A DNA stretch of 58,109 nt, taken from the IMG/VR virus record IMGVR_UViG_3300027983_000019, positions 1 to 58,109 of that record. One strand, given 5' to 3'. The DNA is from a virus (lineage: Duplodnaviria > Caudoviricetes). Shown here piece after piece: positions 6,045 through 49,388 of the stretch (position 1 is the first letter of the stretch; each line of letters opens with the position of its first letter). Position numbers and translations under genes: made by a program. The notes under the pieces are model-generated. The model was not told the origin of the DNA and ran no database searches. It worked only from the letters and a program-made list of their open reading frames with translations.

Positions 6045-6254
6045 ATGAATTGTATATTATTAATTATTGTATTAATATTAACATACCCCATAAGTCACTA
6101 TTTTATGAAAAAAGGTATGTATTTGGATTTAACTATGCCAACAAATAAAAAAAGATATAAAATATTGGGTAAATTATTCATAATCCCAATCATTAATTTG
6201 ATTGTTATGTTTATTTACATATGTTACACAATACACAAATTTAAAAGGATATGA
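6045..6254 (+). CDS. Small membrane protein
   Basis: Two hydrophobic stretches. Confidence 0.6.
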   Translation: MNCILLIIVLILTYPISHYFMKKGMYLDLTMPTNKKRYKILGKLFIIPIINLIVMFIYICYTIHKFKRI

Positions 6255-6487
6255 GGGAGAAACAATCAAAAAAACAAAGTATCATTGAATCCGTCACTAA
6301 TACCCTATTTGGGACAATTTTTAATTTTTTGGTGTCATTGGTTGTCTACCCATTAGTTGGTATTGATGTGACTATGAAAGACATTGGTGTGTTAACAGTT
6401 ATTTTCACATTTATAAGTGTTATAAAGAATTTTTTAGTTAGAAGGTTTTTTGAAACTGAAACGTGGAATAATTTTAGGAAAAAATGA
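6251..6487 (+). CDS. Small two-TM phage membrane protein
   Basis: KKQSIIESVTN...KNFLVRRFF pattern, two TM segments. Confidence 0.65.
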   Translation: MREKQSKKQSIIESVTNTLFGTIFNFLVSLVVYPLVGIDVTMKDIGVLTVIFTFISVIKNFLVRRFFETETWNNFRKK

Positions 6488-6510: not shown

Positions 6511-7062
6511 ATGAAGGGTATGATTAGAAAAATGTTAAGGGAAGATTTTGATTGGGTTACTAACGACACAGTTTCGTTTTTAGAAATAGGTGAACCATTA
6601 TCAACACAATCACCAAAAAACGCTTACCGATTACACATGACACATGGTGTTGGTGAGGAATATGGAACACATATCCCAAATTGGATTGATTTTAACACAG
6701 ATGATTTGGATAGGTTGACTAGATTTATCAAAATATTAAACTACTTAAACCTAAATCATGCTGATGGTTTAGATGGTTTAGTTGATTTATGGGTTAAGGG
6801 AGGCCAAACATGGGTTTTAAGTGATGATACAAATAAAGAAATTACATATGATAAAGAACTTGGTATGTGGTTTATTGACAACACTGAGTTTGATAAAGAT
6901 GAAATAACATACCAAATAGAAGAATGGTTACGTGAAGAGTTATTGGATTATGGTATAATAGATATCGATACATACCACCAAGAAGACGCAAGTGTTGAAG
7001 ATTGGAAAGTAACCTATTTTGATGAATTTGGTGTTGAACATGTGGTTAAAGTTAATTTATAA
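6511..7062 (+). CDS. Hypothetical protein with the shared N-terminal tag (MIRKMLREDFDW)
   Basis: ATG at 6511 just after TATTTATA; tag shared with other ORFs. Confidence 0.75.
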   Translation: MKGMIRKMLREDFDWVTNDTVSFLEIGEPLSTQSPKNAYRLHMTHGVGEEYGTHIPNWIDFNTDDLDRLTRFIKILNYLNLNHADGLDGLVDLWVKGGQTWVLSDDTNKEITYDKELGMWFIDNTEFDKDEITYQIEEWLREELLDYGIIDIDTYHQEDASVEDWKVTYFDEFGVEHVVKVNL

Positions 7063-7066
7063 AACA

Positions 7067-7717
7067 ATGGGTAAGACAATTATAATGGAAGGTCGATATG
7101 ATTCAGCAACTAATAAAGTTGTTAAAGATATCATGAAAGTGATTAAAAAATCGAAGAACTACCCAACAGATGGGATGGTTCACATATCACTACCTCACGA
7201 TTTGGAGAATACTGAAGAGTATGTGATGGAAAAGGCTAACATCGTATTCAGTGTTGAAGTTAATATCACTAGAGAGGAAAAAACACCCACATATGTGATT
7301 GAATCGTTTAGTATTCCTGACGAGGATATACTTGAATTTAATATATCAATCAACCCAAATAGTGAACCACAGATATACCCTGAATTAATGATAAAATTAC
7401 AGGAAGATGTGAGACATGAAATGGAACACCTATTACAGGGATTGGGTAGAGGTGACAGACCAGCACCAGAAAATAGACCTAAAGATGAATCAACATACAA
7501 CCACCACTCAAGTTTAGAAGAAGTACCAGCCATGGTACAAGGTTTTTATCGAAAAGCTAAAAAATTAAAAATACCATTAGATGATGTTATGAACCAAGAT
7601 TTGGAACATGAGGTTAAGAAAAACAACATATCTCAGATGGAAGCTGATAAATTACTTAACCTTTGGACACTATACGCTAAAAGAAGGTTACCAGCAGCTG
7701 TTTACAGAAACAAATAA
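7067..7717 (+). CDS. Putative zinc metallopeptidase-like protein
   Basis: VRHEMEHLLQ (HExxH) with downstream EEVPA; probable start at 7067. Confidence 0.6.
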   Translation: MGKTIIMEGRYDSATNKVVKDIMKVIKKSKNYPTDGMVHISLPHDLENTEEYVMEKANIVFSVEVNITREEKTPTYVIESFSIPDEDILEFNISINPNSEPQIYPELMIKLQEDVRHEMEHLLQGLGRGDRPAPENRPKDESTYNHHSSLEEVPAMVQGFYRKAKKLKIPLDDVMNQDLEHEVKKNNISQMEADKLLNLWTLYAKRRLPAAVYRNK

Positions 7718-22397: not shown

Positions 22398-22436
22398 TAA
22401 TCACGGTGACTTATCACCGTGATATATACACATTTG

Positions 22437-22509
22437 TCTCCCCCACGGGCCTCGAACCCGTAACCTTTCCGTTAAAAGCGGAAAGCCCGTCCACTTGAGC
22501 TTCGAAGAG
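22437..22509 (-). tRNA. tRNA-Lys(TTT)
   Basis: Anticodon arm TTCCG-CTTTTAA-CGGAA. Confidence 0.8.
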
Positions 22510-22511
22510 AT

Positions 22512-22550
22512 AAAAAAAGGGACTAAGTTATGATTGACTTAGTCCCTTTT
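22512..22550 (-). terminator. Intrinsic terminator directly upstream of tRNA-Lys
   Basis: GGGACTAAGT/ACTTAGTCCC stem plus T-run. Confidence 0.8.
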
Positions 22551-22624
22551 AGGTGTGGTTGTAATTTTGTTACCTCCAATTAGTCAATCGATTTTCACGA
22601 CTAACCAATTATCGGTTAGTCTTG

Positions 22625-22834
22625 TTACTGTTTATATTTTAATTTATTTACCATAATTTCTACTTTGTTTTTTCTTTTAATCCTTTTAATCTTTAAAGCT
22701 CTTTTATACTTCTCGTTGAACTCTTTACGGAATTCACTTTTAATAACTTCTTTTTCTGAGTTACTTATTTTTCGTCTTAGTTTTAGTTCTTTTAGTAAAT
22801 ACCTCGTACTAAGACCTAATACTATTGTTAACAT
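22625..22834 (-). CDS. Lys-rich small ORF, candidate leader for tRNA-Lys
   Basis: 16 Lys in 69 aa; ends MVNKLKYKQ just before alternative hairpins. Confidence 0.55.
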   Translation of the reverse strand: MLTIVLGLSTRYLLKELKLRRKISNSEKEVIKSEFRKEFNEKYKRALKIKRIKRKNKVEIMVNKLKYKQ

Positions 22835-22856
22835 TTTGTTTTACTCTTTTAATTAG

Positions 22857-22930
22857 AAGTCAGGGAGGGAATCGAACCCCCGTAAATCGGGTTGCAACCG
22901 ACCACCTATATGCCTCTCAGACACCTGACC
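22857..22930 (-). tRNA. tRNA-Cys(GCA)
   Basis: GTCGG-TTGCAAC-CCGAT. Confidence 0.88.
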
Positions 22931-22934
22931 AAAT

Positions 22935-23012
22935 AAAAAGATAGAGATTAACTATATGAGTGTTTTTCCAAATCCAAATTGATGTAACTCACATTACCGC
23001 TTCTATCTTTTT
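22935..23012 (-). ncRNA. Stem-loop RNA sharing a motif with the elements upstream of Ro60
   Basis: GAAGCGGT...GAGTTACATC...ACTC...AATCTC closed by AGATAGA/TCTATCT. Confidence 0.5.
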
Positions 23013-23014
23013 TG

Positions 23015-23089
23015 TGGAAGTGATGGGACTCGAACCCACATAACCTTCTCGTTGCAAACGAGTTGCTCAGCCAATTGAGCTACACCCCC
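23015..23089 (-). tRNA. tRNA-Ala(TGC)
   Basis: CTCG-TTTGCAA-CGAG; G3-U70 pair. Confidence 0.9.
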
Positions 23090-23143
23090 TTAGTGGCGTA
23101 CCTTTGATTTAAGAGAGGGCACTACCGTTTCAACTCTCTATAG

Positions 23144-23214
23144 AGCGAAATGTGAGAATCTAACTCCTTCCTCTCCTTGGAAGGGAGATGCTTTAACATT
23201 AAGCTACATTTCGC
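23144..23214 (-). tRNA. tRNA-Gly(TCC)
   Basis: TCTCC-CTTCCAA-GGAGA. Confidence 0.85.
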
Positions 23215-23258
23215 GTTTACCATTTTTTTTCTGACCTGAATGATATAAACAGGTTTCG

Positions 23259-23331
23259 CGGAGATGATGGGAGTCGAACCCACTCCGACCTCGCAGACAA
23301 CGAGACATCTTAACCGTTTGACCTCATCTCC
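23259..23331 (-). tRNA. tRNA-Asp(GTC)
   Basis: TCTCG-TTGTCTG-CGAGG. Confidence 0.88.
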
Positions 23332-23540
23332 ATTGCGTCTTAGTTGGTGGTACCACCATGTAGAACCTAAAACAATTTTAACCTACTTTTTATTTTCTAC
23401 CTTTTGTCCACCCTTTGTAATCCAACAGGTTCCGAATTGGGAGTTTAATTCCCCCTTTCCCTTGACCTTTCATTGTGTTACTCATCTTTTGTTTCCTTCC
23501 CATACATATAAATAATATGGGAAGGTACAAAAGTTCCATG

Positions 23541-23613
23541 TCTAAGTGATAGGATTCGAACCTACGACCTGAGTGTCCCAAACACCCCGCTCTACCAACT
23601 GAGCCACACCTAG
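23541..23613 (-). tRNA. tRNA-Pro(TGG)
   Basis: GGGTG-TTTGGGA-CACTC. Confidence 0.9.
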
Positions 23614-23662
23614 TTTTTGTACTTCCTTCTCTCATACGGAGTATAGTACTAACTAATACAGG

Positions 23663-23743
23663 TGGTGCCTGATGGACTCGAACCACTCCCCTAAGGACGA
23701 AATTTACAGTTTCGCTGTCGTATCCAAACGACTTTCAGTCACC
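23663..23743 (-). tRNA. tRNA-Tyr(GTA)
   Basis: CGAAA-CTGTAAA-TTTCG, long variable arm. Confidence 0.85.
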
Positions 23744-23757
23744 AATTGTTTTTAACT

Positions 23758-23791
23758 AAAAAACCCTCGACTTGTTATGGTCGAGGGTTTT
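23758..23791 (-). terminator. Attenuator terminator of tRNA operon A
   Basis: AACCCTCGAC/GTCGAGGGTT stem plus T-run. Confidence 0.85.
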
Positions 23792-23822
23792 AGTTTTAAA
23801 TTAATATCTTTTAATATTTAAC

Positions 23823-23915
23823 TTAATACCTAAGGTCTCGACAATTGTGGTTATAACCACAATCAGTTCCCGCTTTCGCGTCACTCGGTTTATATGTCGG
23901 TTTATTAGTTATCAT
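23823..23915 (-). CDS. Leader peptide A: MITNKPTYKPSDAKAGTDCGYNHNCRDLRY
   Basis: Translated by hand; lies between a promoter (23950-23980) and a terminator; core enriched in K, P, Y, D, A, G, C. Confidence 0.8.
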   Translation of the reverse strand: MITNKPTYKPSDAKAGTDCGYNHNCRDLRY

Positions 23916-24090
23916 TGTTTTTGTTTTTTCTTTGTTTATAAATATAGTACAAATGTAGTAAAAGTTATCTTGTAAGTCAAGTATTTTTTTAATTTATTTT
24001 AATATTTCTTTTTTTCCTTTAATTTAGGTCTTAAACCCTCGTTTCTGATACAAATATAAATAACTTATTTTGATAAATCAAGATAAATCT

Positions 24091-24393
24091 TTATTTTTTA
24101 CCACATTTTTTACATCCTATGTTATCTTTTTTAATTTTTGGTCTCTTATTAATCATTAACTTAATCTGTAATGTAGTTACCATAATAACAACCATGATAA
24201 ATGAATAGGATGATGTTGTTTCTTGAATACCACCACTAAATATATCCTTAACTGATTGAACTCCTGATGATATAACCCATATAACAATGGATATAATGGT
24301 GATAATTTGTGTTAAGTTTCCACCCATAAATCTGTTTAATTCTTGTTGACCACCCTTTTGGTTATCTTTTGGTTTTTCTATTTTTTTATCCAT
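24091..24393 (-). CDS. Two-TM membrane protein
   Basis: Two hydrophobic segments, C-terminal CxxC. Confidence 0.65.
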   Translation of the reverse strand: MDKKIEKPKDNQKGGQQELNRFMGGNLTQIITIISIVIWVISSGVQSVKDIFSGGIQETTSSYSFIMVVIMVTTLQIKLMINKRPKIKKDNIGCKKCGKK

Positions 24394-24400
24394 AATTTTA

Positions 24401-26753: not shown

Positions 26754-26846
26754 TGGCGGAAGACAAGGGGATTGAACCCTCACTACCCATTAAGGGTAGA
26801 CTTGTTTAGCAGACAAGCTCAACGAACCAATATTTGACTATCTTCC
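26754..26846 (-). tRNA. tRNA-Ser(GCT)
   Basis: CTTGT-CTGCTAA-ACAAG, long variable arm, encoded CCA. Confidence 0.88.
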
Positions 26847-27755
26847 ATTAGTGTGTAGATTATTTATGTACTTAATAATTTTATTAGTTTCTTCTATTAT
26901 AAATTTTTTATGACTTGTTAAATCTTTAACTATATATAATTTTATACCTAATATCTCACATTCTTTTATTTTCTGTTTATCTTTTTCTTTTGTTTTAATT
27001 AAAGAACCATCACCTCTAATGTCTTTGTAGTGGTATATACCATTCCACTCAATACCAAAATTCAATGAGGGTATATAAACATCTAATTCACGATTACCCA
27101 TTAGTGTTAACCTATCATTAAATAAAATAGTTAAATTAGGGAAATAAGTGTTTAGTTCATTTTCTAAATATATTTCAGGTTTAGACCTAAGACCATTTAT
27201 TAATTTATTATTTATTTTATTTCTACACACACCACCACAATATTTTCTTCTATTTAATTGTGTTTTAGTTAACCATAATTTTTTATCACAAACCGGACAA
27301 GTAAACTCAACCTTTGGTTTTGTTAATTTTTCACTTATTTTTCGTTTTATTTCGTTACACTTTTTATCATCAAATCTATCACACAGTTTAACACCTTTTA
27401 AATTGACACTAACTGAGTTTCTTATATTAATTAACCCTTGCTTTGATAGTGTGTACACACTCAATACTCTATCTCTATTAGTTGACGAAGCCGAACAACT
27501 GTGTCCACAATATTTATTACCCCTCACTTCGTATGGTATTACCTCAGAACAATATTCACACATTTTTGGTTCAATGTAATACTTTTCCTTATTCTTTCGA
27601 AGTGTTGTTGTTGTATGTTCACGACCTAATCTCACCATTTTCTCATACGATTTACCTTTATTTGGGTTTTTATCACAATTGACTACATGTGACCCAGCGT
27701 GTTTAGGCGTTTTAATTTCCACCTCACCACAGAATTTACATTCATATTTACACAT
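26838..27755 (-). CDS. Putative free-standing homing endonuclease (zinc-finger repeats plus PD-(D/E)XK/Vsr-like domain) inside tRNA operon B
   Basis: Multiple CxxC and YCxxxC motifs; ELDVYIPSLNFGIEWNGIYHY. Confidence 0.75.
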   Translation of the reverse strand: MCKYECKFCGEVEIKTPKHAGSHVVNCDKNPNKGKSYEKMVRLGREHTTTTLRKNKEKYYIEPKMCEYCSEVIPYEVRGNKYCGHSCSASSTNRDRVLSVYTLSKQGLINIRNSVSVNLKGVKLCDRFDDKKCNEIKRKISEKLTKPKVEFTCPVCDKKLWLTKTQLNRRKYCGGVCRNKINNKLINGLRSKPEIYLENELNTYFPNLTILFNDRLTLMGNRELDVYIPSLNFGIEWNGIYHYKDIRGDGSLIKTKEKDKQKIKECEILGIKLYIVKDLTSHKKFIIEETNKIIKYINNLHTNGR

Positions 27756-28506: not shown

Positions 28507-28542
28507 AAAAAAAAATCCCCACCTCGGTTTGAGATGGGGATT
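28507..28542 (-). terminator. Attenuator terminator of tRNA operon B
   Basis: AATCCCCATCTC/GAGGTGGGGATT stem plus T-run. Confidence 0.85.
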
Positions 28543-28567
28543 AAGTAGTTATTTTATTAACTATTAA

Positions 28568-28645
28568 TTACACACATCTCGTCATCTTCGTTATCCACGA
28601 ATTACGACTGATATTAATATTATGTATGTTATTATTAGTTTTCAT
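28568..28645 (-). CDS. Leader peptide B: MKTNNNIHNINISRNSWITKMTRCV
   Basis: Translated by hand; lies between a promoter (28681-28711) and a terminator; codons 4-18 are only N, I, H, S, R, W. Confidence 0.85.
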   Translation of the reverse strand: MKTNNNIHNINISRNSWITKMTRCV

Positions 28646-28730
28646 TTTCTTTTGTTTTTTCCTTGTTTATAAATATACTACAAATATAGTAAAAGTTTAC
28701 CGTTGTGTCAAGTGTTTTTTAATTTATTTT

Positions 28731-29529: not shown

Positions 29530-29571
29530 TTATTTGTGTTAATTTAAGTTTAATATAAATATACACAAAAG

Positions 29572-29839
29572 TAAATAAGGAAGGAATCGAACCCCCACAA
29601 CCTACTTTATTCGGTTATACCTTTCCGTGGTGACTCGGTTTTATATTATAGTATTATTGTTTTCTTGTACAAATTTTAAGGACCACCTGATTAAGGTAGG
29701 TTATTATCTAACATGGGTATCAACCCGTCCCACGCCATAAACCACTACACCACTCACTTTATATATCTCGGATGCGTTAATTAATGGACTTTTGATTCAC
29801 CATTTCGAAGTACGCGTCTACCATTCCGCCACTCATTTA
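29572..29839 (-). ncRNA. tRNA-like RNA with a large (about 170-190 nt) insertion in the anticodon arm
   Basis: D arm GTGGCGGAATGGTAGACGC and T arm GGGGGTTCGATTCC flank a long structured insert. Confidence 0.55.
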
Positions 29840-29843
29840 TTTG

Positions 29844-29912
29844 TAATTAAGGTTGGACTCGAACCAACGACCTCCCCTAAAGGATTGCTCTAACCAACTG
29901 AGCTACTTAATC
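29844..29912 (-). ncRNA. tRNA-like RNA with a shrunken anticodon arm
   Basis: Canonical D and T arms; anticodon arm reduced to TCC-TTTA-GGG. Confidence 0.6.
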
Positions 29913-30160
29913 CACCCTCTCATAACCGACTTGAGTAAGAACCTATTGAGGGAACACTAATATGATGTTTTCGGTTTTCACAGTATCTCCATGGGACTAA
30001 CCCATTGTGATTACCAAACCTCCACTAGTGGTTTTCTACTAGAAATCCGAACTGGTATCTTTGACTTTACTAATAATGGTTAGACACTAACGAGTAGGTA
30101 CTAAACACTTTCGAATTGGGGTAACTAAGATACAAAGTTACCATACACATCGATGATTTG

Positions 30161-30230
30161 TGTTGGGTGGGGGTGTCGAACCCTCATCTCCCGCCTGTGG
30201 CGAGTGTCCTAGCCATTAAACGAACCCAAC
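30161..30230 (-). ncRNA. tRNA-like RNA with a 3-5-nt anticodon loop
   Basis: CTCGCC-ACA-GGCGGG. Confidence 0.6.
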
Positions 30231-30298
30231 AACCAACAATATCAAACTGTAATTATCAATTATTGGTTCTAAAAACAACTATTACAGTAATTGTTTTA

Positions 30299-30767
30299 TG
30301 GTACGGGTGGATGGACTCGAACCACCAAAAACTACTTTTCGGATTACTCTTACTTTTCGTCCACCTCGTCATGGGTTACCCCAAACAAGGCGTGTTTACC
30401 AATTTCACCACACCCGCTTATGTAGTTATTTAACATTGGTACGGAAGAAGGGACTCGAACCCCTAAAAACTACTTTTCAGATTACTCTTACTTTTTCGTT
30501 CACTACCCTAAAGAATAGCGTGTTTACCAATTTCACCACTTCCGTAGTTAAGTCTATACCCCCTCATCCCTCTTCTAATCTTGGGGGTTCCACCTTGTGG
30601 GGTGGATGTGTTTTCATCAAATTCCGTTCAGGTAACGTATTGATTACTATTATTGACTTAGTACATGAGGATGGAATCGAACCATCAAGAACTACTTTTC
30701 AGATTACTCTTACTTTTTCGTTCACTACCCTAAAGAATAGCGTGTTTACCAATTTCACCACTCATGT
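30299..30767 (-). ncRNA. Three related tRNA-Leu-like RNAs with aberrant anticodon arms and a conserved long A-rich variable region
   Basis: Copies at 30299-30417, 30437-30545 and 30662-30767 share GTGGTGAAATTGGTAAACACG and CGAAAA(A)GTAAGAGTAATCYGAAAAGTAGTT; acceptor and T stems covary. Confidence 0.7.
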
Positions 30768-30926
30768 ATATTATCTAATTTTGTTGTCTCTATTGTTATA
30801 CAAACCTAATCATTTTTTATTAGTTTGACAAGTATTTTTGTGTTTTTTTTTATTTTATTTTAAAAAGGTTATCCAACCATTGTAACACTTAATCCTCGTT
30901 GTTGGTACAACTATATGTATAATATA

Positions 30927-31214
30927 TTAAGTAGACAAGTACTTTTTAAAATTTAATTTATTTGGTATTTTATCACCGATATAAATTAACGCCACTGAGT
31001 TAGTTGGAACAATCCCTTTTAGTTCCTCTCTCATCATCCTCTTTATTCTGTTTCTATCAACCGCTCTCTTAAACTTCTTAGAACTAACGGTAAATAAGTA
31101 ACCAGGTGTACCATCTGTAACAATTTTAATTAATACATTGTCCACCACTTTGTTTTTAGCTTCCACACTGAATAACCTATCAATATCTTTATTCTGTTTT
31201 AAACTATACTTCAT
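30927..31214 (-). CDS. rnpA: Ribonuclease P protein component
   Basis: RNR motif VSSKKFKRAVDRNRIKRMMRE. Confidence 0.85.
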   Translation of the reverse strand: MKYSLKQNKDIDRLFSVEAKNKVVDNVLIKIVTDGTPGYLFTVSSKKFKRAVDRNRIKRMMREELKGIVPTNSVALIYIGDKIPNKLNFKKYLST

Positions 31215-31382
31215 GGTACAAATGTAAGTTAAATTTATTTAATAAACAAAAAAAAACCACCCTAAGGTGGTTTATCGGGTAAAATCAAAGGCCTTTTGTC
31301 TACCAAAACTATGTTTCATTTCTCATTGTTGTCAATGCTGTACCCAGACGGTATCACCAAACGAAAGAGGAGTTACACAATA

Positions 31383-31775
31383 TCATTCTTTTAATATCAT
31401 TCTTTTTGTTGAAATTCTATCACCATCAACAATTAATTGATAATAATACTCACCCCTACCAAGACCGTTATAGGTAACAGTTATTTTTGATTCTTGGTCA
31501 TCTAATCTAAAAGCAAAAACTTGATATGTAATATCCTTTATAAGGACTATATATGACACACTGTTCTCAGGTATTAAATACTCAATAATTGTATACCCAT
31601 TTGTTGCTGGGTTTGGGTAATTTTGACCAAGTGTTGGTATTATGGTAACTGTTGAATCCCCAATTAATGTTTCATCAACATGTGTAACTGTATTAACAAA
31701 GGTTTCTAAAATAATTGTGTCAGTCTTTGAACAACCATTAACATCTGTAACGGTTACATGATATTCACCCTTTTT
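31383..31775 (-). pseudogene. Start-less fragment of a T9SS cargo gene (SprB-like repeat plus C-terminal sorting domain)
   Basis: Open frame GEYHVTVTDVNGCS...LGQNYPNPATN...GEYYQLIVDG...TKRMILKE* with an in-frame TAA and no start upstream. Confidence 0.65.
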
Positions 31776-31796
31776 TTATTGTTAATATATATTTAG

Positions 31797-31872
31797 TAGC
31801 GGGAGCCAGAGTCGAACTGACGAATGTATGGCTTATGAGACCATAGAGGAATACCACACCTTCTACCCCACG
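31797..31872 (-). tRNA. tRNA-Met(CAT), initiator-like
   Basis: ATGGT-CTCATAA-GCCAT; unpaired C1. Confidence 0.75.
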
Positions 31873-31877
31873 TTTTG

Positions 31878-32017
31878 TGTACTTCTCAGGATTTGAACCT
31901 GAACGTGTGTACCTTAATTTAATCTACCCATAGTGTGTGGGTGGTTTGTAATCGTGTCCACACAACACTCAAACATTTACCATTAAACTAGGTGCGTCTA
32001 CATTCCGCCACAAGTAC
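31878..32017 (-). ncRNA. tRNA-like RNA with an about 70-nt expansion of the anticodon arm
   Basis: Acceptor GTACTT/AAGTAC, D arm GGCGGAATGTAGACGC, T arm CAGG-TTCAAAT-CCTG. Confidence 0.55.
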
Positions 32018-33212: not shown

Positions 33213-33287
33213 TGAGGGTAGAGGGAGTCGAACCCCCGGCCTATTGTTTGTAAGACAACCACTCTAAACCAACTGAGCTATACCCCC
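33213..33287 (-). tRNA. tRNA-Val(TAC)
   Basis: TTGT-CTTACAA-ACAA. Confidence 0.9.
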
Positions 33288-34078
33288 TTATATTCGTAAT
33301 GTTTTTTCCATTTTCTAATCGAGTTATCACTAACACCATACTTTTTACCTGTACCAACATAACCTAATGTTTCTATCTCTTCAAGTAGTTGGTTATATGT
33401 TGGTCTAACAACCTTTCGTTTAGATACTTCACTACAACCAACACACCTTAAACTTTTATTGTTTATTTTACAACCACAACTACAAAAATTTTCTTTTTTT
33501 AACCTTTTATTATTTTTACCTGAGAAAGTATCTAAAGTGGTGTCACAGTTGGGACAAACTATTCTAAGATTCTCAATTCTATTGTCGGTATTAATGCCGT
33601 TTATATGGTCTAATATTAAAGACATCTTTTTACCCATCCATTCATCGTTTTGACCACACAACTCACATATTCTCTCTTTAATCCCTTCCTTATATAATCT
33701 TTTTTTTAGTGTTGACGTACCGTATGTACTACCACTAACTAAAATTTCCTCTGTTGGTATTTTTAACCTTTTCCTCGTTATACCATTATTAAAATGTGAT
33801 ATATCTAAATTATATAAATTCATATAATTTTTAATTATTTTATATGATGCTCCAGTGATTGTAATACCCAAATCAATACATAGTTCCCTAATACTTCCAT
33901 AATCTTTAATTTTAGAACTTAACACTTTTTCGTTATATACTCTATGGTTATATTCAATAAAATTATCATTAGCGTATACATAAACTTCATTAACAGGTGT
34001 TTTTAACATACTAGCCACCATAAACGGACCACACTTACTATAGTTTTTTTTAATAATATTTTTTTCATGTTCTCTCAT
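33278..34078 (-). CDS. HNH homing endonuclease inside tRNA operon C
   Basis: LILDHINGINTDNRIENLRIVCPNC; C-terminal HTH-like GKKYGVSDNSIRKW. Confidence 0.85.
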   Translation of the reverse strand: MREHEKNIIKKNYSKCGPFMVASMLKTPVNEVYVYANDNFIEYNHRVYNEKVLSSKIKDYGSIRELCIDLGITITGASYKIIKNYMNLYNLDISHFNNGITRKRLKIPTEEILVSGSTYGTSTLKKRLYKEGIKERICELCGQNDEWMGKKMSLILDHINGINTDNRIENLRIVCPNCDTTLDTFSGKNNKRLKKENFCSCGCKINNKSLRCVGCSEVSKRKVVRPTYNQLLEEIETLGYVGTGKKYGVSDNSIRKWKKHYEYKGV

Positions 34079-34575: not shown

Positions 34576-34614
34576 AAAAAAAAACCCGAACTCAATAATT
34601 TGAATTCGGGTTTG
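34576..34614 (-). terminator. Attenuator terminator of tRNA operon C
   Basis: AAACCCGAATTCA/TGAGTTCGGGTTT stem plus T-run. Confidence 0.85.
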
Positions 34615-34636
34615 TTTGATTGTATATCTTAAATTG

Positions 34637-34735
34637 TCATGAGACATTAGACACACCAAACCCGAATACAGTTTGTAACTGTACCATAAAGACTTGCGTC
34701 AGGGTAAATAAAGATATGTTTGTTAATGTTTTCAT
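34637..34735 (-). CDS. Leader peptide C: MKTLTNISLFTLTQVFMVQLQTVFGFGVSNVS
   Basis: Translated by hand; lies between a promoter (34771-34801) and a terminator; codons 9-24 are only L, F, T, Q, V, M. Confidence 0.85.
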   Translation of the reverse strand: MKTLTNISLFTLTQVFMVQLQTVFGFGVSNVS

Positions 34736-34810
34736 TTTGTTTTTAATTTTCTTTGTTTATAAATATACTACAAATATAGTAAAAGTTCTCTTATAAGTCA
34801 AGTATTTTTT

Positions 34811-35878
34811 TTATTTATTTTTAATATACTTGAAATCTTCGTTTTCTTCCAATGATAATAGTGTGTGATATATCAATTTAATCACATTTTTAACATCTTT
34901 TTTATCCACAGTCTCAACCGTAGTGTGCATGTATTTTAATGGTAATGATATCAATTGACAAGCAACACCACCATTAGATGTGTAAAAAGCGTTTGTATCT
35001 GTTCCAGAGTTACCATTATATGTACCCCTTTGGAATTTAATTTCTTTTTCCTTAGCTACACCAATTACTTTCTTATGTAAATTTAGTTGGATGTCTCCAC
35101 CTCTAAAAATAACTGGACCGAGACCTGACTTTGTATCACCAGCTGTTTGTTTGTTCATGTGTGGTGTATGTGTATCATGACATACATCCGTTATAATCGC
35201 AACATTAGGTTTAATTGTTTGAGCTATCATTTTAGCTCCGAATAAACCAATTTCTTCCTGAACTGAATTAACGATGTATAGAGTGTAAGGTAATTTATCA
35301 CCTTTATCTTTTAATTTTTTAGCGACTTGTGCTATCATATACCCACCAATTCTGTTGTCCAACGCTCTTGATATGTATTTTCCTTTTCTTTCTTTGAATT
35401 GTGTATTATATACCATAGGACAACCTACAAATATACCCATACCCTCAACTTCTTCTTTTGATGATGCCTCAACATCGACAAATAGGTTGTCAACACTTGG
35501 TTGTAATTCACTTGAACTCTTTCTTTCGTGTATAGCTAACCAACCAAAGTGACCTTCAACTACACCATTTTCACCAAGTATTTGAACACTCGTTCCAGGT
35601 GCTATTTGATGGTCTGAACCACCATTTCGAACTACCCTAATAAATCCATCACTATCAATGTGGTTAACCGTCCACCCAATCTCATCAGCGTGAGCCTCAA
35701 TAACTACTTTATAGTCTTTTCCTGGGTTAACAACCCCAACAGCTGTTCCATATACATCGGTAAATGTTTCATCAACATAATCCTTTATATAATCCAACCA
35801 AATTTGTTGACCTTCGGTTTCCATCCCCGTAGGTGATTTGGCGTTAAGGTATTTTTCTAAAAACTCTTCTTTTTTCAT
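34811..35878 (-). CDS. M42-family aminopeptidase
   Basis: EAHADEIG, RALDNRIG, VQEEIGLFGA, GTDT and YMHT motifs. Confidence 0.9.
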   Translation of the reverse strand: MKKEEFLEKYLNAKSPTGMETEGQQIWLDYIKDYVDETFTDVYGTAVGVVNPGKDYKVVIEAHADEIGWTVNHIDSDGFIRVVRNGGSDHQIAPGTSVQILGENGVVEGHFGWLAIHERKSSSELQPSVDNLFVDVEASSKEEVEGMGIFVGCPMVYNTQFKERKGKYISRALDNRIGGYMIAQVAKKLKDKGDKLPYTLYIVNSVQEEIGLFGAKMIAQTIKPNVAIITDVCHDTHTPHMNKQTAGDTKSGLGPVIFRGGDIQLNLHKKVIGVAKEKEIKFQRGTYNGNSGTDTNAFYTSNGGVACQLISLPLKYMHTTVETVDKKDVKNVIKLIYHTLLSLEENEDFKYIKNK

Positions 35879-42467: not shown

Positions 42468-44105
42468 TTACTGAGTTACCTCAACGACAGAGACGTTAGT
42501 TTCCACTTCATCCCATGCGTCTATTAGTACCTTAGCGAACTGACTTTCTTTCCCAGTCCACCCTGACAATATAGCTCCTCTATATAAATTTTCAGGAACA
42601 ACCGAGTTATTATATCCAGCTGTTTGTATCGTAAACATATTAACCTTCGGGTTAACATCTTTCCTATACCTCTCAACTAATTTAAGAACATCGATGTAGT
42701 TCCCATAACTAGTACCACCATAAATATAGTCTTTATAGTCACTTCGGTTTATCCCAAACAACGAACCGTGTCCAGCTTGTTGGTCTGAGTATATAAAGAT
42801 ATTGTCGTAGTGAACTTTGTTTTCGATTGCCTCCTTGAAGAACAACCAAATACCATTTTCAGTTCTTGGACCTTGTTTTTTACCTCGTTCTTTGGTTTCT
42901 TTCATTTGAGATAAGATACCATTTCTTTTCGAAACAGGTTTTAAATCTAGTTTATCACCGAAAACGCCAACCTCACCTTCATCAGATTGTATCGCGGTAA
43001 TTATACTAGACAAGTTACCTATATCAGCAACAGTAACAGTACCATATTCAGAATTAAAAGAACCCCAAGCCGAACCAGAGTTATCAGATAAACAAACTGT
43101 TTTACCCTTTAATTTAGGTAAATTTTTCACCGAAATATCAAGACACTCTTCAAGTGCATCTTTCAATAGACCTTCGTGATTAACACCTTCAATAGCTTTG
43201 AACGCTGAGTAATATCTAAAAGGGAATTGTTTACCGTAAAGTACACCGCCTTTTAATTTTTCACACACATCTTTAGTGAATAGTAGGTCATTAACCTCTG
43301 TGAAGATACCTCTAAGATTTATTAGTAAAGCCATATGAGGTATTTTGATTGTATCAAAAATCTCTTTCCATGTTTTACCTTCGGACCTTAAACTTTCCCA
43401 TGTTCGTGAACTTTCTTCCACAGTGACATTACCCGTAGTCATCATCTCTGTAATGACATCTGATTTAGCGTGAGAAATTCTCACTAAATCTATAAGTCCT
43501 TTGGATTTATACTTATTCATTCTGTAAGCGTCGAACTCACCTAACGCGTCAGCCCAAACCCTTTTTACGATTGACGGTAAACCCTTTTTGGTCACATTTA
43601 ACCACATGTAGTAGTCAAACTGATTTGTGATGTCATCAGGTCTGATAATAAGTTCAGAACCAATTTTTCTCATAACACCAGGGTTTTCTTTGTTAAATTC
43701 AACCCTTCCTTCGTGTCTTGCTGCTCTAATAAATATTACAGCTGGGTTCATCCTCATGAAATACTCGTGTCTTAAAGTACGAGCTAATTCCAAAGTCCCC
43801 ATAAAGTTTTCAGTTAATGCCTCATCAATACACTTAGTAAAAACATCTGTTGTTGTTTCAACTTCATCGTCAGAATATAACCCAAGTACGTCATTCTTCA
43901 TAATAGTCTGAATATTGGTTGGTTTATCGTGTGATGCTTTGTAGTAAGATGGTTCACCGAATATTGAACTCCCAGCTACAATCCTTAACGTGTCTAATGG
44001 TTTTAAGGTATAAGATGTACCTCCCATAAAATTTGTTACGGACGTTCCTTCGTGTGTTCTAATACTCGACACTGTTTTCTTAGAAGATTTTGAAAATTTA
44101 CTCAT
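42468..44105 (-). CDS. Ro60/TROVE-domain RNA-binding protein
   Basis: TWES, IPHMALLINLR, QFPFRYYSA and vWA MIDAS-like CLSDNSGS motifs. Confidence 0.9.
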   Translation of the reverse strand: MSKFSKSSKKTVSSIRTHEGTSVTNFMGGTSYTLKPLDTLRIVAGSSIFGEPSYYKASHDKPTNIQTIMKNDVLGLYSDDEVETTTDVFTKCIDEALTENFMGTLELARTLRHEYFMRMNPAVIFIRAARHEGRVEFNKENPGVMRKIGSELIIRPDDITNQFDYYMWLNVTKKGLPSIVKRVWADALGEFDAYRMNKYKSKGLIDLVRISHAKSDVITEMMTTGNVTVEESSRTWESLRSEGKTWKEIFDTIKIPHMALLINLRGIFTEVNDLLFTKDVCEKLKGGVLYGKQFPFRYYSAFKAIEGVNHEGLLKDALEECLDISVKNLPKLKGKTVCLSDNSGSAWGSFNSEYGTVTVADIGNLSSIITAIQSDEGEVGVFGDKLDLKPVSKRNGILSQMKETKERGKKQGPRTENGIWLFFKEAIENKVHYDNIFIYSDQQAGHGSLFGINRSDYKDYIYGGTSYGNYIDVLKLVERYRKDVNPKVNMFTIQTAGYNNSVVPENLYRGAILSGWTGKESQFAKVLIDAWDEVETNVSVVEVTQ

Positions 44106-49190: not shown

Positions 49191-49224
49191 AAAAAAAATC
49201 CGATTATTTCTAATCGGATTTTTT
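49191..49224 (-). terminator. Attenuator terminator of tRNA operon D
   Basis: AAAATCCGATTA/TAATCGGATTTT stem plus T-run. Confidence 0.85.
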
Positions 49225-49249
49225 AAAGTTTATATAATACAATATTACT

Positions 49250-49312
49250 TCATATCCGATGTGAATAAGTCTCTCTTTCTTCTCTTCTCTCTATGTTAGT
49301 AATTATTGTCAT
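49250..49312 (-). CDS. Leader peptide D: MTIITNIERREERETYSHRI
   Basis: Translated by hand; core GAG AGA AGA GAA GAA AGA GAG; lies between a promoter (49340-49369) and a terminator. Confidence 0.88.
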   Translation of the reverse strand: MTIITNIERREERETYSHRI

Positions 49313-49388
49313 TGTTTCTTGTTTTTTATAAGTATACTACAAATATAGTAAAAGTATTCTAATTGTCAAGTATTATTTTTTTTATTTT

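Follow-up and report, generated by a model that had tools for sequence, protein, structure and literature searches.

It is not settled how phages control the tRNA genes in their genomes, or what such genes are there for, and both questions are brought up by a locus in which a run of tRNA genes follows a promoter, a short open reading frame (ORF) and an intrinsic terminator. The locus, which we call operon A, lies in a 58,109-bp IMG/VR virus fragment (record IMGVR_UViG_3300027983_000019; G+C content ~31%); "the window" hereafter means this whole stretch as analysed. What is the short ORF doing in front of the tRNA genes? Our reading, to which we assign a probability of roughly 0.8, is that operon A and three sister units in the window (B, C and D) are ribosome-mediated, that is leader-peptide, transcription attenuators of tRNA genes, which would sense decoding capacity. 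It is drawn from features of the sequences themselves, namely the anatomy of the units, the match between leader codons and downstream tRNAs, the complementarity between leader and terminator, the conservation of the leaders and their co-variation with the arrays. Operon A consists of the following parts:

23980..23952, minus strand: promoter-like site TTGACT-17-TACATT, from a promoter scan
23915..23823, minus strand: leader ORF A, 30 codons and TAA, translated as MITNKPTYKPSDAKAGTDCGYNHNCRDLRY, with no Shine-Dalgarno (SD) sequence
23853..23903, minus strand: putative sensing codons 5-21 of leader A, 14/17 cognate at the amino-acid level and 13 at the codon level
23863..23844, minus strand: perfect 10+10 palindrome ATTGTGGTTATAACCACAAT (ATTGTGGTTA/TAACCACAAT), a hairpin one base 5' of GTCGAG
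23842..23837, minus strand: putative antiterminator 5' strand GTCGAG, in codons 25-27 of leader A, complementary to CTCGAC
23791..23760, minus strand: intrinsic terminator AAAACCCTCGAC-cataacaa-GTCGAGGGTTTT with U tract, 12-bp stem, 16 nt before tRNA-Tyr
23743..23661, minus strand: tRNA-Tyr(gta), first gene of the operon A array
23540-23613, minus strand: tRNA-Pro(tgg), operon A array
23258-23331, minus strand: tRNA-Asp(gtc), operon A array
23143-23214, minus strand: tRNA-Gly(tcc), operon A array
23014-23089, minus strand: tRNA-Ala(tgc), operon A array
22856-22930, minus strand: tRNA-Cys(gca), operon A array
22834..22625, minus strand: 69-codon ORF between tRNA-Cys and tRNA-Lys, from the ORF list
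22550..22515, minus strand: terminator-like hairpin with U tract just before tRNA-Lys (fold z = -6.3)
22509..22436, minus strand: tRNA-Lys(ttt), last tRNA of operon A, from the tRNA calls

The promoter part at 23932..23980 (minus strand) also fits the pattern TTG...TAnnTTTG (TACATTTG) and holds a 34-mer common to all four units. Codons 5-21 of the leader encode KPTYKPSDAKAGTDCGY, and a codon count bears out the preliminary description, made from the sequence of the locus, which had noted that 14 of these 17 codons specify one of K, P, Y, D, A, G and C; tRNAs for all seven amino acids do follow on the same strand, from Tyr to Lys. Its remark that the CCG and GCG codons are unusual and dependent on wobble holds in a comparison of codon usage: CCG, present twice in leader A, accounts for 17/308 Pro codons (6%) and GCG, likewise present twice, for 17/262 Ala codons (6%) in 40 long ORFs of the window, and the two are read via U34-G wobble by tRNA-Pro(UGG) and tRNA-Ala(UGC). 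The pairing of GTCGAG with CTCGAC, which forms part of the terminator 5' arm at 23785..23780, and the perfect palindrome immediately upstream of GTCGAG were also found as described. Natural variants of operon A weaken this palindrome without compensation.

From this arrangement we infer that the leader is translated, that transcripts terminate in front of the array and in which direction the switch works. Host RNA polymerase would start at the shared promoter and a ribosome would translate the 30-codon leader, in which codons 5-21 are mostly read by tRNAs encoded downstream. Were any of the cognate tRNAs scarce (uncharged, absent or cleaved), the ribosome would stall within codons 5-21, leaving GTCGAG free to pair with CTCGAC, so that no terminator would form and transcription would continue into the array. 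With fast decoding, the ribosome would move over GTCGAG to the stop codon, the 12-bp terminator would fold and the transcript would end 16 nt before tRNA-Tyr. The predicted outcome is a demand-driven negative feedback, separate for each tRNA set. Rare wobble-read codons (CCG, GCG, CTG, TCG, AGC) would raise the sensitivity of such a sensor to particular tRNAs, and candidate causes of a lowered tRNA supply in vivo are a mismatch between the host pool and the AT-rich phage codons, tRNA decay after infection, and anticodon nucleases.

A 34-nt promoter core yielded four matches in the window vs none in 100 shuffles, and behind each of the four come a short ORF, an intrinsic terminator and then a tRNA array. 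The promoter and first leader codons of operon A have copies of 85-86% identity at 34821..34714 and 28730..28632. The three sister units are laid out as follows:

34582..34786, minus strand: unit B, shared promoter; leader 34735..34637, MKTLTNISLFTLTQVFMVQLQTVFGFGVSNVS; putative antiterminator ATTCGGGTTT(G), 34667..34657; terminator 34613..34582; array Gln, Thr, Phe, Thr, (HNH endonuclease ORF), Val, Leu, Leu
28514..28696, minus strand: unit C, shared promoter; leader 28645..28568, MKTNNNIHNINISRNSWITKMTRCV; putative antiterminator GAGATG, 28580..28575; terminator 28542..28514; array His, (Ser(UGA)-like), Asn, Asn, Ile(gat), Trp, (HNH ORF), Ser, Ser, Ile(tat), Arg(acg)
49193..49355, minus strand: unit D, shared promoter with 2 mismatches; leader 49312..49250, MTIITNIERREERETYSHRI; putative antiterminator ATCGGAT, 49260..49254; terminator 49224..49193; array tRNA-Glu(ttc) and tRNA-Arg(tct) only

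Leader C carries the run NNNIHNINISRNSWI in front of the His, Asn, Ile, Trp, Ser and Arg(ACG) tRNAs, while leader D, which is followed by just two tRNA genes, carries the run ERREERE (GAG AGA AGA GAA GAA AGA GAG). The tRNA-His of array C was called by Rfam, with the anticodon GUG taken from the alignment, and the second Asn is an Rfam call at 32.9 bits. The ORFs inserted in array C (26838-27755, minus strand) and array B (33278-34078, minus strand) encode HNH homing endonucleases.

An exact search with the 22-nt promoter pattern returned one IMG/VR contig (G001) and 20 metagenome loci, 12 of which hold leader units. The others were dropped: L023 breaks off 55 nt past the promoter, and L009, L012, L013, L016, L019, L021 and L025 are chance matches inside unrelated sequence. 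Together with a cultured phage, the relatives add five further units of the attenuator design to the four of the window. The leader ORF, whose conservation the preliminary description had regarded as decisive, is conserved: the operon A homologue in L010 differs by 3 nt, keeps all 30 codons and is followed by Tyr, Pro, Asp and Gly, and the diverged leader A on a contig of run X8 has six substitutions and an in-frame deletion of 3 nt. Contigs from runs X4 and X5 join position 23391 to 23541 and thus are without 149 nt of the tRNA-Pro/tRNA-Asp spacer.

The related unit of G001, termed A', has a leader of 29 codons, MKNYKTYKGCDAKADKGCDYILNGQNMSV (beginning MKNYKTYKGCDAKADKGCDY), and the array Lys, Tyr, Asp, Gly, (ORF), Gly, Ala, Cys. 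No tRNA-Pro was found in this array at either ARAGORN threshold, and leader A' is without a Pro codon, in contrast to the window, where array A has tRNA-Pro and leader A has its two CCG codons. A C'-type unit on the same contig has the leader MKTINVHMISISNWGRNSHH... and the array His, (GIY-YIG ORF), Ser, Asn, Ile, Trp, Ser, Arg, with the GIY-YIG-like ORF directly after tRNA-His. Homologues of leader B (L007, L015, L018, L026) differ at no more than 19/99 nt, and the length of 32 codons is retained in every one. Within codons 8-19 each of their four substitutions (S>Q, L>Q, Q>L, V>L) introduces a cognate residue, and three of the homologues (L007, L015, L018) have tRNA-Met after tRNA-Gln, which fits the conserved ATG at codon 17. 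Class E was found in six metagenome contigs of another lineage, with the leader MRTNNTHKHFSKSSKWFSNKSELGTGRVLYIS, containing HKHFSKSSKWF, and the array Phe, Trp, Lys, His, Phe, Lys, Arg, Ser. A second array of the class E phage (L020, 11850-11950; Met, Ala, Asn, Asn, Arg, Ile, Leu, Thr, Cys, Met and more) is preceded by an identical type of promoter and by the 5' leader sequence, but by neither an ORF nor a terminator; not every tRNA array is therefore gated, and this one offers a natural ungated contrast.

The design is also present in cultured Cellulophaga phages. In phi17:2 (KC821609) a promoter of the form TTTG-N19-TATGTTTG occurs twice, each time in front of a unit:

phi17:2 unit 1: leader MKIQRLHLQELEQPIISGGTGV, terminator; array Pro, Glu, Gln, His, Leu, Leu, Arg(acg)
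phi17:2 unit 2, inside the annotated hypothetical gene gp077: leader ...QLTKTGITVIDKTKGARAYLGDTVIG, terminator; array Ala, Lys, Ile, Gly, Met, Asp, Thr, Val, Arg(tct), Met, Tyr

In unit 1 the 3' arm of the terminator, GGGAGG, is copied in the leader, and codons 4-14 (QRLHLQELEQP) are cognate at the codon level in 11/11 cases, including CGT and CCG. The unit is at least 99% identical in seven phi17:2/phi4:1 records and is unannotated there. Unit 2 matches at 23/26 codons at the amino-acid level, with Arg encoded by AGA. Gene gp077 overlaps the promoter and leader, and its TTG start is doubtful; the stretches of KC821609 considered for these leaders are 6141-6260 and ~7054-7230. ARAGORN finds a tRNA-Lys in phi17:2 that is not in the table of the record. 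The 33-aa gp078, which precedes Ser, Asn, Trp and Phe, was considered as a further leader and rejected, having neither a terminator nor a match.

For a statistical treatment of the codon match we used whole leaders, with no core chosen by eye, and took the amino-acid usage of the 40 long ORFs as background. We further defined a zone by the rule that the first base of the codon in the ribosomal A site lies at least 13 nt upstream of the antiterminator. The counts of cognate codons were:

Leader A: 17/29 over the whole leader (binomial p = 5.6e-3, background 0.34), 14/20 in the zone (p = 1.1e-3)
Leader B: 21/31 over the whole leader (binomial p = 4.5e-6), 13/18 in the zone
Leader C: 15/24 over the whole leader (binomial p = 2.5e-4), 15/17 in the zone
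Leader D: 8/19 over the whole leader (binomial p = 5.4e-4), 7/13 in the zone
Leader E, from the relatives: 17/31 over the whole leader (binomial p = 7.6e-4), 12/16 in the zone

At the codon level leader A matches at 16/29 positions vs a background of 0.265 (p = 1e-3). With the exception of leader D, every leader was matched best by its own array. Zone matching over the five leaders gave a Fisher-combined p of 1.6e-16; outside the zone 18/50 leader codons are cognate (zone vs rest p = 5e-5), and the computed boundary coincides exactly with the end of the cognate run in leaders A, C, D and E. When nine leaders are taken together, 147/241 codons (61%) are cognate in frame, with 62/228 (27%) and 51/209 (24%) in the other two frames, and because the enrichment is seen only in frame, base composition does not explain the match. 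The choice of Arg codon follows the anticodon in 4/4 cases, being CGT where the array has Arg(ACG) (leader C and phi17:2 leader 1) and AGA where it has Arg(UCU) (leader D and phi17:2 leader 2). The first 4-7 codons of the leaders are shared and non-cognate.

In each class the last third of the leader copies part of the terminator 3' arm and is thereby a partner for the 5' arm. The antiterminator sequences differ among the classes, with the complementarity kept. We scored the longest leader segment complementary to the terminator 5' arm against dinucleotide shuffles:

Class A: GTCGAG, 6 nt, shuffle p 0.045 (222/5000 shuffles as good)
Class B: ATTCGGGTTT, 10 nt, shuffle p 0.0002
Class C: GAGATG, 6 nt, shuffle p 0.037
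Class D: ATCGGAT, 7 nt, shuffle p 0.0096
Class C': GTCGGGT, 7 nt, shuffle p 0.052
Class E: GAACTTGG, 8 nt, shuffle p 0.0042

Over these six classes the combined p is 1.2e-7. When the terminator 3' arm was left out of the transcript, the antiterminator appeared in the minimum free energy (MFE) structure of 8/11 units folded, operon A included; the terminator of L007, with a loop longer than the terminator script allowed, was read by eye. In partition-function folds, positions -15 to +12 relative to each A-site codon were masked to represent the ribosome. For every one of the seven classes they predict sequestration of the 5' arm (P 0.5-0.9) with the ribosome in the cognate run and its release just after the run; for operon A the in silico probability of sequestration is 0.6 at codons 1-21 and then 0.1-0.4. 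Once the ribosome has reached the stop codon, P drops to 0.3 in A, 0.2 in C, 0.1 in D and 0.0 in A', which amounts to occlusion in 4/7 classes. A distance of 25-32 nt separates the stop codon from the terminator in A-E, too far for a terminating ribosome to melt the hairpin. A hairpin directly 5' of the antiterminator strand is present in A (the palindrome), B, C and E, and may be a pause or 1:2-type hairpin, or an anti-antiterminator. The proposal of the preliminary description, a leader-peptide attenuator with codons matched to the downstream tRNAs, is supported at the level of sequence, each prediction of that kind which we tested having come out as expected.

Several points weigh against the attenuator reading. 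Within codons 5-21 leader A has the non-cognate residues T, S and T, and its GGT lies outside the strict wobble of Gly(UCC); the tRNA-Lys of operon A is found behind the 69-codon ORF and a second terminator-like hairpin. The antiterminator of operon A has 6 bp vs the 12-bp G+C-rich terminator and taken alone is barely beyond chance (p = 0.045); the case of operon A gains its weight from the sister units, in which the entire design recurs. The antiterminator is not in the MFE structure for C and two E units, full-length MFE structures always show the terminator, and a ribosome at the stop codon leaves the antiterminator uncovered in B, C' and E; since P there stays at 0.5-0.7, these three classes need a kinetic argument. 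The offset of 13 nt used for the zones comes from general knowledge of ribosome footprints, of which the whole-leader counts are independent. At the amino-acid level leader D scores 11/19 with the tRNA set of array C vs 8/19 with its own, because of the shared I, T, N start; at the codon level the scores are 7/19 with its own set, 5/19 with the strict and 7/19 with the extended set C. The one change in its homologue L017, GAA>AAA in the D run, lowers the match. In array C the Ile(gat) and Trp genes are relaxed-threshold ARAGORN calls and the Ser(UGA)-like gene was recognized by eye only, and leader B has an ATG codon without a tRNA-Met in the B array of the window, the gene being present in the three homologues named above. 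Finally, the leader classes share ancestry in promoter and first codons and are not fully independent.

If the leaders are translated and control read-through, they could still report general translation status, meaning ribosome availability, global amino-acid starvation or translation inhibitors, instead of the supply of particular tRNAs. A ribosome slowed within the zone for whatever reason would act alike, the shared first 4-7 codons match no tRNA of the arrays, and a leader cannot separate low tRNA from low charging. The codon set, however, differs from leader to leader and in each follows the array behind it, the Arg codon follows the anticodon in all four cases, and the Pro codons are gone where tRNA-Pro is absent; a general sensor would need none of this matching, and we consider it improbable. 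Equally small is the probability we give to translated leaders in which stalling matters for an output other than terminator switching, such as protection from RNases, a block of Rho, or tRNA processing. The short antiterminators of A and C (6 nt), the exposure of the antiterminator in B, C' and E when the ribosome is at the stop codon, and equilibrium folds that favour the terminator are in keeping with such an output, but every unit has a canonical hairpin with U tract right before its first tRNA, and every terminator has its complementary segment in the last third of the leader, at the combined p of 1.2e-7 given above.

That the ORFs are chance frames in promoter-terminator spacers, or that the transcripts are small non-coding RNAs, with the arrays expressed by read-through or from other promoters, is very unlikely. 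The ORFs are indeed short, without SD sequences, and unannotated even in cultured phages; leaders without SD are nevertheless normal in this genome, in which SD-like 4-mers were found for just 4/38 long ORFs and the upstream regions are 83% A+T. Such frames would moreover have to account for a match specific to one frame (61% vs 27% and 24%), for a combined matching p of ~1e-16, and for ORF lengths kept across 19/99 nt differences, with one indel, in frame. Hardly more can be said for functional micro-proteins whose composition merely resembles the arrays, an idea that would be in line with the frequency of small phage proteins and with the DAKA motif common to leaders A and A', and that we likewise hold very improbable. 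The substitutions show no third-position bias (L018 and the B leader of the window differ at 7, 6 and 6 sites by codon position), the peptides of the classes are unrelated beyond the first residues, and a PHROGs search, made with the neighbouring 69-codon ORF only and not with the leaders, found no family.

As to the source of the window, the completeness of only 18% estimated by CheckV suggests that it probably derives from a jumbo phage. Metagenome runs that contain the stretch are from freshwater and salt-lake samples, with no RNA run among those listed, and a blastn search for near relatives among cultured phages with 22400-24400 matched tRNA genes only, at no more than 4% coverage. The promoters of the window fit TTG...TAnnTTTG, which we take to be the Bacteroidota sigma-A consensus. 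The tRNA genes, 23 according to ARAGORN and 24 according to Rfam, are all on the minus strand. A 545-aa ORF at 42468-44105 (minus strand) matches PHROG 850, 'RNA-binding protein' (E = 7e-39). The window also has a central cluster of unusual tRNA-like genes (29571-32005, minus strand) without a leader unit; no leader of the attenuator type was found there, and there are other promoter-like sites. It includes three genes of 106-116 nt (30302-30417, 30440-30545, 30662-30767) with ~35 extra nt at the anticodon arm, two of which ARAGORN in intron mode assigns the anticodon UUA, a tRNA with a collapsed anticodon loop (29844-29912), and two stretches, at ~29838 and ~32005, that start like type-II tRNA 5' halves. 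The 69-codon ORF of operon A has 16 Lys by manual count (23% vs 9% background) and is followed by two strong hairpins from repeated GACUAA/UUAGUC segments; the region 22515-22834 may hold a second Lys-related control element, or just encode a small basic protein.

With somewhat less confidence than for the window itself, we think it probable that phage tRNA arrays are regulons, each with its own multi-codon attenuator gauging the reading speed of the codons of the array, and that this organization is widespread in phages of Bacteroidota-type hosts, including phi17:2 and phi4:1. If so, tRNA genes would be regulated by the decoding capacity that they themselves supply, and the leaders would state which codons the phage treats as limiting, rare wobble-read ones included. 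Such a sensor would be well suited to switch the phage tRNAs on at host tRNA scarcity, on degradation after infection, or on cleavage by anticodon nucleases. Because the design is present in cultured Cellulophaga phages, it is directly testable, and the short modular leaders could act as codon-specific reporters of translation speed for Bacteroidota.

A full-text literature search, with subscription-only and old papers outside its scope, returned no description of leader-peptide attenuation of tRNA genes. Old reports of short ORFs among the tRNA genes of phage T5 may exist; nothing on such ORFs came up in the literature search or in passages of PMC4810235. By sequence the leader A stretch belongs to no Rfam leader family, scoring, below threshold, 25.2 bits (E = 0.028) with His_leader RF00514 vs a gathering score of 49, and 18 bits with Phe_leader RF01859 vs 55. 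T-box riboswitches are alike in that they couple tRNA status to terminator read-through before translation-related genes, but they bind uncharged tRNA directly, without translation, unlike the leaders proposed here; no non-tRNA Rfam family reached its gathering score in the window, and no T-box was among the 23 matches to E = 10 for 23740-24000. The attenuator of pheST (with the pheM leader), which controls the phenylalanyl-tRNA synthetase of E. coli, is similar in that a leader peptide which senses charged tRNA acts on a translation-apparatus gene, and differs in that the gene encodes a synthetase, a single amino acid is sensed and the system is cellular, whereas here the genes encode tRNAs and are viral.

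A close parallel is with the enterobacterial attenuators of trp, his, leu and pheA and, among them, the multivalent ones of thr (Thr and Ile) and ilvGMEDA (Ile, Leu and Val). Like these, the units described here have a short ORF near the promoter that contains putative regulatory codons, an intrinsic terminator in front of the first gene, and a part of the leader able to pair with the terminator 5' arm, with a hairpin just upstream of that part. The leader A unit departs from classical attenuators in one defining feature, the kind of gene controlled, which in enterobacteria are genes of biosynthesis, transport or synthetases and here are tRNA genes (with the inserted HNH ORFs in B and C). The units differ further in that up to 7-10 tRNA species are addressed per leader, partly through rare wobble-read codons, and in that they belong to a phage, are Bacteroidota-like and are without SD sequences. 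As the molecules that would be sensed are the products of the tRNA genes controlled, the feedback proposed here would be direct.

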